From a virus (taxonomy: Duplodnaviria; Heunggongvirae; Uroviricota; Caudoviricetes), in IMG/VR virus record IMGVR_UViG_2923360383_000006: a stretch of 11,057 nucleotides of DNA, one strand, 5' to 3'. Positions within the stretch are counted from its first letter, which is position 1; every line of letters begins with the position of its first letter. The notes beneath the pieces were generated by a model. The model was not told the origin of the DNA. It worked only from the letters and a program-made list of their open reading frames with translations, and searched no databases. The translations under genes and the position numbers were made by a program. This document shows positions 5,522-8,158 of this stretch, piece after piece.

Positions 5522-7339
5522 TTAATTTTTGCTATCGTCATTAGTGACCGATACACATGATGGCATCCAGTCTTCTGATTCCTCCGTCAGTGTCACGTTT
5601 GAACGCAAACCGTGCTTCGTTTTCCGTTTCATATACTCCCTGCCATATTCCGCCATTGCCCCCGGCATATCTTTACCGAAGCGCGTCAGTGTTACAGGTT
5701 TACCAAACCCATGTGCCTTCATATAAGCCAGATAGGCATGATAGAGATACCTGCGCGGGCTGAATGGCACAATTTCAGCATTACCCACTAACAGGCCATC
5801 ACACATTACCGACGCCATGAGATAGCCGCAGAAGTCCACCAGCGAATCACCTTCACGCTTTATCGCGAGTGCTTCTTCTGATTTCTGCTGCTCATATAAA
5901 AGGCGTCTGGCTTCGTCCTGGTCAGCAAACCGTGTAAGCAGATGACGAATCACTACCGCCAGCTCACCTTCTATTTTTTCCGCCAGCATTGAATCGCGTT
6001 CGTTCTCCGGTACAACTTCCGAAAAATTGAATATCACCCGACGACGTGAGATCCCCCCGCTGCGGTCACTGAATGACATGGCGTTATTGTTAACCGCCAG
6101 CACTACTGCCGGAATACGCGTTGAGTAGGGGGCTTTGTGTTTCGGGTCAATTGCCACCTTGTCACCGCCTGTAATGGCCTTAATCCCTGCCCCATCACCA
6201 GCGTAGCGGGTCATATCCGGCATGATAATCAGCGAAAAGCCAACCACTAACGCGCGTTCCCTTGCATCTTCCAGCGCCTTCATGCTTGCCGATACTGTGT
6301 TGGCCTTACCCGCCAGCATGGTGCAAATCTCCGCCATCACGCTTTTACCACTTCCCCCTGGACCTGTTACCTCAATGAATAACTGCCAGTCGTACCGGTT
6401 CGCCAGCACCATGAATAATGCAGCCAGTACGCGATCCGCCTTGCGGTCATTCTCAGCCACCGAACGGCGTAACCACTTCCAGAAATTCGGCGCATGTGTT
6501 GCCAGCGTTTCCCCCTCTGCTGGTGGGCTGAAAGGTAATTCACTGGCAATTAACAACCAGTCGTTTTTGTTATGCTCCCGAAAATTACCTGTTCTGGTAT
6601 CAAATACCCCGTTACTGAATCCAATCAGGTTACGGGCTGTATTCCCCATTACAGGCAAACTTAACTTCATGGTATCGACCGCCGATTTAATGGCGTTCTG
6701 CGAATAGCTGATCTCCGCATCAATGAAAATCTGCGCCATAGCACGCTGTAACTCTTTATCCTGAACCGGCTCCCATACAACGCCGTTGTAATGGTGAACA
6801 GTGTCAGAGTCGGCATGAATCGCCAGTTCACCGCCATAATGTGCCAGGAGAACTTCGCCGCGTTGACTTGCTCCCATCTGGTTAAGCGCCAGTGATGAAG
6901 CGTTATCGTCTTTTACCCGCTCTTTTTTCTTTACAGGCAGTTCAACTACCTTTTTCTTTTCCGCCAGCTCTGCCCGTTCACGTTCCAGATATTCACGCCA
7001 GTTCTCCCGTTTCTGGCTGTGCATTCCTTCAGGGTAATAATCAGCATCCCTGACACCTGCCACTGCCAGTTTCTGCCCGATGGTATTAACAAGCCCCGGA
7101 CGCAATAACCCCGCCTGATAGAGACGCACGCGATAGCGTCCGTCCGGTACGATTTGCAGGTTGTCCAGTTCGGCAAGTTGTTGCTCTCCAAGCCAGACAG
7201 GTGGCACGTTATCGCCAGCCAGTCGCCCGTCCTGTTCCTGCCACTGTTTCGCATGTGCCCACGCATCACTACCCGCAAAAATGATGACTTCCGTCATTTT
7301 GTCACGCGGCTGGTGTTTTAAATTTGGCGCTTTTTTCAT
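5522..7339 (-). CDS. Replication primase-helicase, P4 alpha family (D5_N-like region plus SF3 helicase)
   Basis: Walker A VTGPGGSGKS and downstream helicase-like motifs; region around GFSNGVFDTRTGNFREHNKNDWLL resembles D5_N. Preferred start is the ATG at 7339 (GGAGAG upstream, overlaps the orf99 stop); the track start at 7354 is GTG. The iteron origin is immediately downstream. Confidence 0.85.
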   Translation of the reverse strand: MKKAPNLKHQPRDKMTEVIIFAGSDAWAHAKQWQEQDGRLAGDNVPPVWLGEQQLAELDNLQIVPDGRYRVRLYQAGLLRPGLVNTIGQKLAVAGVRDADYYPEGMHSQKRENWREYLERERAELAEKKKVVELPVKKKERVKDDNASSLALNQMGASQRGEVLLAHYGGELAIHADSDTVHHYNGVVWEPVQDKELQRAMAQIFIDAEISYSQNAIKSAVDTMKLSLPVMGNTARNLIGFSNGVFDTRTGNFREHNKNDWLLIASELPFSPPAEGETLATHAPNFWKWLRRSVAENDRKADRVLAALFMVLANRYDWQLFIEVTGPGGSGKSVMAEICTMLAGKANTVSASMKALEDARERALVVGFSLIIMPDMTRYAGDGAGIKAITGGDKVAIDPKHKAPYSTRIPAVVLAVNNNAMSFSDRSGGISRRRVIFNFSEVVPENERDSMLAEKIEGELAVVIRHLLTRFADQDEARRLLYEQQKSEEALAIKREGDSLVDFCGYLMASVMCDGLLVGNAEIVPFSPRRYLYHAYLAYMKAHGFGKPVTLTRFGKDMPGAMAEYGREYMKRKTKHGLRSNVTLTEESEDWMPSCVSVTNDDSKN

Positions 7340-7635
7340 TTCTGCTCTCTCCACGCGGCAATCATGTTTTTCAGTTCCTGCAGTTTTTTATCCACATCCA
7401 CACGTGACACATGGTTATTTCTGGAAGTCGGGATTTCCCGCCGGAATCTGCTAATAAAGATCTCCACGTTCAGCGAACTATGAAATGAATAGCCATCACG
7501 AATAAAATACACACGGTCAAACATCAGTTCTTTTACCGTTACTCTGTTACCGTTCTTATCCAGATAAATAGCGCCGGGGATAATTTTGGGGTGTGCATAA
7601 CCGCTGGCAGTCAAGCCAGATAAATATGTTCTCAT
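7336..7635 (-). CDS. Hypothetical protein (99 aa), translationally coupled to the primase
   Basis: ATG at 7635 with GGGGA upstream; stop overlaps the primase ATG. No family recognised. Confidence 0.5.
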   Translation of the reverse strand: MRTYLSGLTASGYAHPKIIPGAIYLDKNGNRVTVKELMFDRVYFIRDGYSFHSSLNVEIFISRFRREIPTSRNNHVSRVDVDKKLQELKNMIAAWREQK

Positions 7636-7641
7636 GATTAT

Positions 7642-7962
7642 TTATCCCCGATTTGAATCAGTATTCGCTTTCTTTATGGCATTTAATGCATCTGTGGCAT
7701 TTTCAATGGTGCACCGTAACGAAATATCAAACTGCCCAAGCATTGCCAGTAACAAACCGATATTACCCATATCAATGCGCATGGCCTTTTCGTCATAGTC
7801 CTCATTTTCTGACGCATGCCACATCAGGCTACCAATTGACGCAACAGCCATTGATATATTGTCAGTAGCCCCATCCGCAGCGGAATAAACCTTTTTAGCA
7901 ATATCATGCTCACAGTTAAAATGCGGATTAATCAGGTACTGGTAATTTGACATATCAGGCAT
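7642..7962 (-). CDS. Hypothetical acidic protein (106 aa)
   Basis: Start overlaps the Icd-like ORF end by 8 nt; net acidic composition. Sits where P4-like elements carry anti-repressor-type genes, but no homology is asserted. Confidence 0.5.
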   Translation of the reverse strand: MPDMSNYQYLINPHFNCEHDIAKKVYSAADGATDNISMAVASIGSLMWHASENEDYDEKAMRIDMGNIGLLLAMLGQFDISLRCTIENATDALNAIKKANTDSNRG

Positions 7963-8158
7963 GGCATACCCCCTGACGAATACGGGCGGCGAATACCATC
8001 ACGCAGCCAGCCGGGGATTGCTGGCGTGCTTCCTGTTCGCTGGTGGCCTCAATGGTAATCACGCGCGGTTGTGCCGTGCTCAGGGCGATAAAACGCCAGA
8101 TGTATTTATTCAGGTTGTGCGAATCCCGCCCTTGCGGGTGTGTGGTATGATTTAACAT
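7955..8158 (-). CDS. Small protein (67 aa), possibly Icd-like host cell division inhibitor
   Basis: ATG at 8158 with GAGG 7 nt upstream; MLNHTTHPQGRDSHNLNKYIWRFIALSTAQPRVITIEATSEQEARQQSPAGCVMVFAARIRQGVCHA. The hydrophobic WRFIAL and FAARI segments resemble my recollection of Icd-like proteins. It is the terminal 67 codons of the implausible 221-aa track ORF 7955..8620. Confidence 0.45.
   Translation of the reverse strand: MLNHTTHPQGRDSHNLNKYIWRFIALSTAQPRVITIEATSEQEARQQSPAGCVMVFAARIRQGVCHA

Follow-up and report, generated by a model that had tools for sequence, protein, structure and literature searches.

A predicted SymR-like antisense RNA in front of the icd-orf106-orf99-replicase operon of an Escherichia coli phage satellite

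Introduction

What is the function of the three small genes which precede the replicase gene in a phage satellite related to P4? We have addressed this question in a stretch of 11,057 nucleotides (IMG/VR record IMGVR_UViG_2923360383_000006), called the window in this work. It is an E. coli phage satellite of about 11 kb, related to P4 and to the phage-inducible chromosomal islands (PICIs). An Icd-like gene (icd), orf106 and orf99 lead on its minus strand into a replicase gene, also described as a primase. A previous sequence-only reading presented them as a translationally coupled operon, at a position which in P4 holds immunity and anti-repressor functions, and proposed orf106 or orf99 as candidates for helper derepression or host takeover. 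As first described, the three genes are ordinary members of a known satellite architecture. A predicted SymR-family antisense RNA in front of icd appears to go beyond the existing annotation and the literature that we have found.

Our reading is that the three genes form a promoter-proximal early operon, in which the antisense RNA would gate the expression of Icd, orf106 would be an accessory gene and orf99 would be an accessory of the replicase, of the RgdR type. We assign to this reading a probability of about 60%. The loci compared with the window are designated L003, L004, L005–L007, L011, L012, L018, L020 and so on; loci L022 to L141 come from IMG/VR.

A predicted antisense RNA

The proposed RNA is found on the plus strand. 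It directly abuts the ATG of icd and is complementary to the Shine-Dalgarno sequence and leader of this gene (Table 1). The Rfam model for SymR (RF01809) matches it in the window with 34.7 bits and an E-value of 0.0015, the gathering threshold being 61. Five other loci, from E. coli, Enterobacter, Superficieibacter and Intestinirhabdus, present sub-threshold SymR matches (28.7–36.7 bits) at the same place and in the same orientation.

In an alignment of 12 loci the two-hairpin structure is 96% paired, and in nine pairs both partners have changed. A comparable pairing is not reached in any of 500 shuffles; slid controls are 35–44% paired. When SymR from E. coli K-12 is aligned (46–66% identity), 21 of the 22 scorable pairs of the 23-pair structure are formed, and the number of doubly changed pairs increases from 9 to 13. 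We have also compared both strands: 38 cells of the alignment are G·U when read on the plus strand and would be C·A on the strand of the icd mRNA, versus one in the opposite direction. The minimum free energy of the plus-strand RNA is −37.5 kcal/mol (z −5.7), that of its complement −30 kcal/mol (z −4.3). A U-rich tract, for example GCUUUUUUCG or GCCAUUUUUG, follows the GC-rich second hairpin in the plus direction only.

A candidate promoter accompanies the RNA. The −10 hexamers are TATGAT, TATGCT and TAGACT, with A2 and T6 invariant in the 12 loci, and are placed 7 nt before the predicted AG start. They fall in the Asn/Gln-His-Thr codons of icd.

Our own covariance model, R1, derived from the same alignment, gives 87 bits in the window and one copy per locus in 171 kb. 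It also finds a copy (67 bits) in L003, a locus outside the training set, and no copy in P4. No C4 (RF01695) or IsrK (RF01394) RNA is detected in the Rfam scan of the window at E-values up to 1, and no sar. The Prokaryotic Genome Annotation Pipeline (PGAP) annotation of an identical island does not include an RNA at this place, and we have found no paper linking SymR-like RNAs to satellites or to Icd.

The RNA core abuts an open reading frame (ORF) in 116 IMG/VR instances: it is Icd-like in 88 of them, a Bro-N or P22_AR antirepressor in 25 and another type in 3. Most contigs in which the core lies opposite the 5′ end of Bro-N, P22_AR_N, P22_AR_C or ORF6N genes (L044, L070 and L083 are examples) have the size of a prophage, 40–60 kb.

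A striking case is L003. Its orf106, orf99 and primase have 97–99% amino acid identity to those of the window, while its Icd is a P4-like allele, preceded as in P4 by IsrK and C4 (cI) RNAs which score above the Rfam gathering thresholds. Both types are found in tandem at positions 4750–5373 of this locus: the SymR-like RNA with an 18-codon remnant of an icd of the window type, then IsrK, C4 and the P4-type icd. The presence of two RNA cassettes ahead of the same downstream genes argues for their functional equivalence. This probable interchangeability of SymR-like and C4-IsrK cassettes, together with the conserved long frame described below, also goes beyond the annotation and literature descriptions that we have found.

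The Icd-like protein and its long frame

The Icd-like protein matches NCBIfam NF033153 over residues 19–62 (69.8 bits, cutoff 25, E 1.5e-19) and phrog_6196 in PHROGs (E 1.5e-45). The same NF033153 domain is found in P4, at residues 85–132 of the 'cI protein' ORF137, which is the C-terminus of eta/kil, after a Phage_ASH region. The full P4 frame of 214 amino acids, which starts within vis, consists of Phage_ASH followed by the Icd-like domain. In a tblastn search of the phage collection the Icd-like protein matched a single satellite-like record, P1 not being among the matches. Mentions of 'icd' in Mageeney et al. (PMC10111431) refer to isocitrate dehydrogenase, not to Icd.

By analogy with P4 Kil and with the effector of strain ECOR61, discussed below, Icd would be a small basic toxin or cell-division inhibitor. 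Like P1 icd and P4 kil/eta, its gene is the first one of an operon fronted by an RNA element. Among 5426 complete E. coli genomes, about 1660 carry the segment formed by icd and its leader.

The frame of icd remains open for 156 codons upstream, up to the TAA of the AlpA-like gene, which is an in-frame stop. We have measured this openness in 12 diverged loci, between the upstream gene (coding for AlpA or a Bro-N/AntA protein) and the icd ATG. In ten of them the icd frame has zero stops over 462–867 nt, with a probability of 6e-4 to 4e-7 per locus, and each of the other two frames has 9–23 stops. We had considered the N-terminal extension of Icd as an annotation artefact, an idea dropped after this test. 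Since the frame stays open upstream in 10 of the 12 loci, the 67 amino acid Icd is predicted to be a short form, with an internal start, of an eta-like ORF of about 220 amino acids.

The long form would start in the window at GTG 8620 or, more likely, at ATG 8617, behind a GGGGGAG sequence and 6–9 nt past the stop of the AlpA-like gene. Its start lies between −20 and +10 nt from the upstream stop in nine of the ten open-frame loci, and five of the ten keep an M-x-x-KTKA motif at the N-terminus. As summarized by Mageeney et al. (PMC10111431), P4 Eta is a long form translationally coupled to an alpA homologue, Kil is its truncated, cell-killing form, and eta translation prevents immunity-specific termination.

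Some icd genes code for 121 amino acids (L011, positions 4832–5192, and several IMG/VR loci): an additional Icd-like N-terminal half is fused in frame to an Icd of the window type. [quoted passage not shown]

Table 1. Features of the operon region, with positions in the window
Feature	Position	Strand	Description
SymR-family cis-antisense RNA (predicted)	8159–8242 (Rfam match 8159–8231, ~73 nt)	+	Hairpins 8159–8192 and 8194–8228, U-rich tail
Candidate extended −10 (TGgTATGAT)	8143–8151	+	Within icd codons 3–5; 7 nt before the predicted 5′ end
Icd-like short ORF	7955–8158	−	67 amino acids, isoelectric point (pI) 9.5; ATG internal start; GAGGT Shine-Dalgarno; PGAP coding sequence
Eta-like long ORF (predicted)	7955–8617/8620	−	~220 amino acids; antisense through ylcI, operators and RNA gene; ends as Icd
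orf106	7642–7962	−	106 amino acids, pI 4.6; acidic helical hairpin; variable slot between icd and DUF4222
orf99	7336–7635	−	99 amino acids, pI 10.0 (9.99); basic protein of the DUF4222/RgdR family
Replicase/primase	5522–7339	−	P4 alpha-like D5_N / DUF5906 / Pox_D5 helicase part; ATG at 7339
Two GGTACGTACC palindromes, putative icd-promoter operators	8260–8302	.	Perfect 12-nt inverted repeat GGTACGTACCAT / ATGGTACGTACC
Weak promoter-like TTGCAT-16-TATAAA	8309–8282	−	Flanked by the GGTACGTACC palindromes
YlcI/YnfO-family (DUF3950) gene	8304–8486	+	60 amino acids; PF13132 E 5.6e-8, NF041551 E 1.8e-7
AlpA-like HTH_17 regulator	8627–8824	−	PF12728 E 1.3e-12; stop in frame with the eta-like ORF, immediately before it

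The inverted repeats around the putative icd promoter look like operators. Other loci have a TTGACG −35 at the equivalent place, with their own allele-specific inverted repeats. The YlcI-like protein, which by eye resembles a ribbon-helix-helix protein, could be the repressor of this promoter, and thereby the one which is missing in this type of PICI; a sequence search of the PDB with it gave no match.

The operon and its small genes

The description of the three small genes and the primase as a single, tightly packed unit with a common orientation holds: the ORF list, the sequence, a script and PGAP agree, and RefSeq/PGAP calls the same four coding sequences in the island of E. coli APEC 16-1068. 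The ATG of orf106 lies 8 nt within icd (ATGCCTGA). Six nucleotides separate the orf106 stop from the start of orf99, which has a GGGGA Shine-Dalgarno sequence ahead, and an ATGA combines the orf99 stop with the primase start. Such overlaps suggest translational coupling of the small genes and the primase. In 70 related chains from icd to replicase, 222 of the 283 junctions are overlapping, with peaks at −8 and −4 nt, a figure somewhat inflated because our rule for picking starts prefers the nearest one.

The three small genes are real, not chance ORFs. Full-length orf106 DNA, with at least 95% identity, is found in 472 of the 473 genomes with a match among the 5426 complete E. coli genomes, and no allele has an internal stop. 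Diverged homologues of orf106 and orf99 are found at the equivalent position in other genera. There is a step in base composition: icd (56% GC) and primase (51%) differ from orf106 (41%) and orf99 (43%), which is consistent with a mosaic acquisition of the latter two genes.

The order icd, 1–6 small ORFs, DUF4222 (in some cases) and replicase is conserved in E. coli, in other genera and in IMG/VR, where the survey shows 2–6 small ORFs between icd and replicase. A replicase is reached in 71 of the 88 chains which start with an Icd-like gene.

The sequence-only reading had found no recognizable motif in any of the three proteins. Profile searches, which it had suggested together with structure prediction, have given families for the Icd-like protein and for orf99; orf106 belongs to a family with no assigned function, and its predicted structure is a generic hairpin.

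orf106 has no match in Pfam or NCBIfam, and its matches in PHROGs are limited to groups annotated as function unknown. Neither orf106 nor orf99 gave tblastn matches in 50,697 phage records. An exhaustive HMMER and profile search defines the orf106 family, which belongs to the Enterobacterales: acidic proteins of 100–108 amino acids in Escherichia, Klebsiella, Kluyvera, Erwinia, Raoultella and others, with G44, M47 and G69 invariant. Homologues occupy the same operon position in satellites of Klebsiella and Kluyvera and in loci of Rahnella, Superficieibacter and Rosenbergiella. The predicted structure is a long helical hairpin (predicted local distance difference test, pLDDT, 82.8), whose structural neighbors are generic.

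Several candidate assignments were rejected. Many members of the family are called 'ubiquinol-cytochrome C reductase' at NCBI, a propagated misnomer: no domain supports the name, and the setting is a satellite. Large repeat proteins (tetratricopeptide and Ig-like repeats) among the HMMER matches are spurious, with scores summed over many repeats. orf106 does not have the W-x-G turn motif of a WXG100 or EsxA-like hairpin, nor a type VII secretion context.

orf106 is an accessory gene which evolves fast. Sister E. coli loci which share the icd allele have an unrelated protein of 75 amino acids in this slot, or two of 77 and 154 amino acids, and members of the orf106 family are present in 14 of the 71 IMG/VR chains which reach a replicase. 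Most likely, orf106 acts with the Icd-dependent growth arrest or modulates it, or else senses or antagonizes a factor of the phage or the host.

orf99 matches Pfam DUF4222 (PF13973) with 61.1 bits (cutoff 27, E 7e-17). One member of this family has been characterized, RgdR (ECs1581), which has 99 amino acids and a pI of 10.1 and is encoded in O-island 51 of enterohaemorrhagic E. coli (EHEC). RgdR activates LEE1, in the enterocyte effacement locus (LEE), represses motility, alters Congo-red binding and binds DNA non-specifically. Its orthologue in the model PICI EcCICFT073 is C1493. orf99 has the traits of the family: 99 amino acids, a basic composition, a conserved core (residues 20–68) and a satellite location. 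The DUF4222 copy of L004, to which orf99 is 35% identical, has R-G-D at residues 20–22 and is directly upstream of a RepA-type helicase.

The replicase of the window shares 50% identity with P4 alpha over residues 145–595, has a distinct N-terminus of 130–140 amino acids and may lack the P4 primase domain. These N-terminal residues (about 130) are 74% identical to the N-terminus of the RepA-helicase-type replicase in L004, which suggests that a shared N-domain has been swapped between replicase types. The ATGA junction with DUF4222 is found whether the replicase is annotated as a DNA primase family protein, DUF927 or RepA-helicase. A DUF4222 gene directly precedes the replicase in 47 of the 71 chains.

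We infer that orf99 is a basic Tudor/SH3-like DNA-binding protein, most likely an accessory factor of replication or the nucleoid, made in a fixed ratio with the replicase. Effects on host genes such as LEE and motility would most likely be side effects of this role.

The satellite island

In gene order, the island has a tyrosine integrase and an orphan of 228 amino acids, followed by the AlpA-like HTH_17 regulator, the divergent YlcI/YnfO gene and the icd-orf106-orf99-replicase operon. [quoted passage not shown] This is the architecture of a Gram-negative PICI-type satellite, with the usual size range (about 10–15 kb), int, alpA, pri-rep and few capsid or packaging genes. By analogy, its induction and transfer would depend on a helper. 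In these PICIs AlpA is a helper-induced activator, and the repressor or immunity function is reported as not known. Mageeney et al. (PMC10111431) divide satellites in integration, 'Bro/immunity-RNA', replication and late zones, a scheme which applies to this island. An island 100% identical to the window is found in E. coli APEC 16-1068, between tRNA-Ile and nfeF (RefSeq/PGAP).

Related islands show some other features. In Klebsiella (L005–L007) a satellite with an orf106 homologue, DUF4222 and a D5_N primase is located between phage capsid and tail genes; it has two integrase-family genes and resembles the helper-embedded PICIs of PMC10111431. The Rfam int-alpA RNA (RF02996) is found above the gathering threshold between int and alpA in L011 (2117–2185), L012 (1618–1686) and L018 (1803–1868), and is not detected in the Rfam scan of the window. 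Sister islands of EHEC-type strains have a PerC/Pch-family regulator downstream of SSB (L020, 2100–2372; L004, 1779–2051). Such satellites would thus deliver two LEE regulators, one of the RgdR type and another of the Pch type.

Discussion

The proposed mechanism may be summarized as follows. A constitutive SymR-family RNA would pair with the Shine-Dalgarno sequence and leader of icd, keeping the translation of Icd off. The operator-flanked promoter would be a second hold on icd. Once AlpA is switched on by a helper phage, ribosomes arriving from alpA would translate the eta-like frame across the target of the RNA. This translation would open the block, as in P4, and allow expression into the downstream genes.

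Several points weigh against this reading. The SymR covariance-model score is well under the Rfam gathering threshold, the RNA promoter has a poor −35, and the extended TG is missing in one subgroup. A consensus scan finds no strong sigma-70 promoter for the operon. Two of the 12 loci do not have the long open frame, and the eta-like ORF is antisense to a well-supported ylcI-like gene, an unusual overlap. As to the proteins, the fold of orf106 is uninformative and its alleles are weakly constrained (9 synonymous versus 18 nonsynonymous changes); we have discarded this count as an argument for selection on orf106, since it is too weak. orf99 does not have the RGD motif (it has P20-G21-A22), and its predicted model has a pLDDT of only 69. 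The slot genes of ECOR61 are not homologous to orf106. The surveyed loci are related, so that our counts are of non-independent events. Finally, the antisense RNA, the long ORF and the proteins are predictions from the sequence.

Other explanations have been considered. orf99 might be purely a replication regulator similar to Cnr, which would bind the replicase N-domain or the origin for copy number control, the phenotypes of RgdR being artefacts of overexpression. The P4 Cnr gene occupies the same slot, RgdR binds DNA non-specifically, and orf99 is coupled by ATGA to the replicase across three replicase types with a shared N-terminal domain. On the other hand, orf99 has no homology to Cnr/DUF5375, DUF4222 is not directly before the replicase in 24 of the 71 chains, and type III secretion decreases when the chromosomal rgdR, expressed at native levels, is deleted. 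We consider this possibility unlikely in its pure form, although it should be taken seriously.

Helper derepression, as proposed in the sequence-only reading, fares worse, and we find it improbable that orf106, orf99 or both are derepressors of a helper prophage (analogues of P4 epsilon) or antirepressors. It is an argument from position only, because neither protein has any similarity to P4 epsilon, orf151 or Cnr in BLAST and hhalign comparisons. With epsilon there is no alignment for orf106, and orf99 gives only a 10-residue match (E 0.21); with Cnr (DUF5375) there is no BLAST alignment, an hhalign probability of 0.1% and no Pfam DUF5375 match. Bro-N, AntA and KilAC domains are absent. The position itself, between the Icd/immunity region and the replicase, is that of epsilon, and the RNA cassette does front genuine Bro-N or P22-type antirepressors in 25 of the 116 IMG/VR instances, a region named the 'Bro zone' by Mageeney et al. 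(PMC10111431). Nevertheless, it is the helper which induces Gram-negative PICIs, by way of AlpA, and they are not known to act on it in this manner. DUF4222, for its part, follows the replicase and not the immunity region.

We give an equally small chance to the idea that the segment matched by Rfam is a structured 5′ leader of the icd mRNA, or a site at the DNA level, which resembles SymR by chance. The score below the gathering threshold would allow it, and on the minus strand, too, the fold is better than in shuffled sequences. Against it, G·U cells are practically confined to the plus strand, the U-rich tail follows the hairpin in that direction only, and a conserved −10 is placed 7 nt upstream. 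A chance resemblance is also difficult to reconcile with the fit of K-12 SymR and its compensatory changes, or with sub-threshold matches in six loci at the same place and orientation. Least probable of all is a protein toxin-antitoxin pair in which the acidic orf106 neutralizes the basic Icd, as the 8-nt overlap and the opposite charges (pI 9.5 versus 4.6) might suggest: sister loci with the same icd allele have unrelated slot proteins, slot insertions in ECOR61 suppress death and do not cause it, and a candidate RNA antitoxin is already present.

Returning to the antisense-gated operon, a wider proposal may be made, tentatively and at odds of about one in three. The SymR-family RNA and Icd/Kil would constitute an immunity switch similar to a type I toxin-antitoxin system, placed at the head of replication operons in many enterobacterial satellites (antirepressor genes in the case of prophages) and swappable with the P4 cI/C4-IsrK cassette. 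The chromosomal symE-symR locus of E. coli would be a relative or remnant of this mobile cassette, and slot proteins such as orf106 would provide the specificity or sensor part of a phage-triggered death response, as in ECOR61.

Operons of this type are common. RgdR, with its effect on the expression of EHEC virulence genes, comes from one of them, and the type appears to match a phage-triggered cell-death system defined by experiment. If our reading is correct, the antisense RNA and the operator-flanked promoter before Icd would be a testable immunity layer for Gram-negative PICIs.

Comparison with known systems

The equivalence with the P4 position is confirmed: the gene order is parallel, and the C-terminus of P4 eta/kil is Icd-like. 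The left operon of P4 has the order vis, eta/kil with cI (C4-family) RNA and seqA (IsrK), epsilon, orf151, cnr (which in P4 is also called orf106) and alpha. Both systems share an AlpA-type gene, a long ORF which ends as Icd with a nested short toxic form (in the window, a prediction), small genes and an alpha-type replicase, and the operon is RNA-gated in both, again as predicted for the window. The differences are a SymR-like cis-antisense RNA instead of C4/IsrK, the replacement of epsilon, orf151 and cnr by the unrelated orf106 and DUF4222, and late genes of the PICI type (protease-capsid fusion, DUF1441) instead of sid/delta/psu.

RgdR and C1493 are similar to orf99 in several respects: DUF4222 proteins of 99 amino acids with a pI of about 10 and a core at residues 20–68, found in P4/PICI-like islands where their genes directly precede the replicase. 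The identity of orf99 is only about 35%, with P-G-A in place of R-G-D at residues 20–22, a position which has been shown to matter for LEE activation. Since RgdR homologues alter LEE expression, motility and Congo-red binding, 'host-takeover factor' is a plausible description for orf99. For orf106, this part of the earlier proposal finds indirect support in its slot, through the suppressors isolated in ECOR61.

According to a preprint by Silas et al. (2023), orf24, an accessory protein of a T7-family phage, kills ECOR61. Suppressor Tn5 insertions were found in an Icd-like gene and in two small overlapping downstream genes, and it took six linked genes, a primase among them, to reconstitute death, Icd being the likely effector. 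These insertions tie the slot of orf106 to Icd-dependent growth arrest. The gene lengths (121, 61 and 63 amino acids) and the overlaps match those of the chain in L074 and L093, which consists of icd, 61, 63 and 73 amino acid proteins, DUF4222 and primase, and carries the SymR-like RNA core. This type of chain appears to be the prophage-encoded ECOR61 cell-death system, judging by gene lengths and annotation only. It differs from the window in its slot genes of 61 and 63 amino acids and in the 121 amino acid form of Icd.

In P22 immI (mnt, arc, sar RNA, ant) and P1 immI (c4 RNA, icd, ant), an antirepressor or toxin operon is held at its first gene by a small RNA which blocks the ribosome-binding site, near small repressor genes. 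Our RNA core similarly fronts P22-type antirepressor genes in prophage contigs. In the window, on the other hand, there is no Rfam match to sar or C4, and the operon has no antirepressor domain.

For the RNA itself, the known system to compare is the type I toxin-antitoxin SymE-SymR of E. coli K-12 (RF01809), where SymR represses symE translation and the symR promoter is inside the target coding sequence. The target in the window would be Icd/Kil (an antirepressor in prophages) and not SymE, with its AbrB fold; the RNA heads a replication operon, palindromic operators replace the LexA box, and the Rfam score is 29–37 bits, the gathering threshold being 61. In other aspects the correspondence is close: a two-hairpin RNA of about 75 nt opposite the Shine-Dalgarno sequence and AUG of the target, a −10 within its His-Ser/Thr codons, 7 nt before an AG start, and an apical sequence, GUGUUGGCGCAC, which is identical in one allele. 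If our reading is correct, it would link the RNA immunity of P1 (c4), P4 (cI) and P22 (sar) with the SymE/SymR toxin-antitoxin system.

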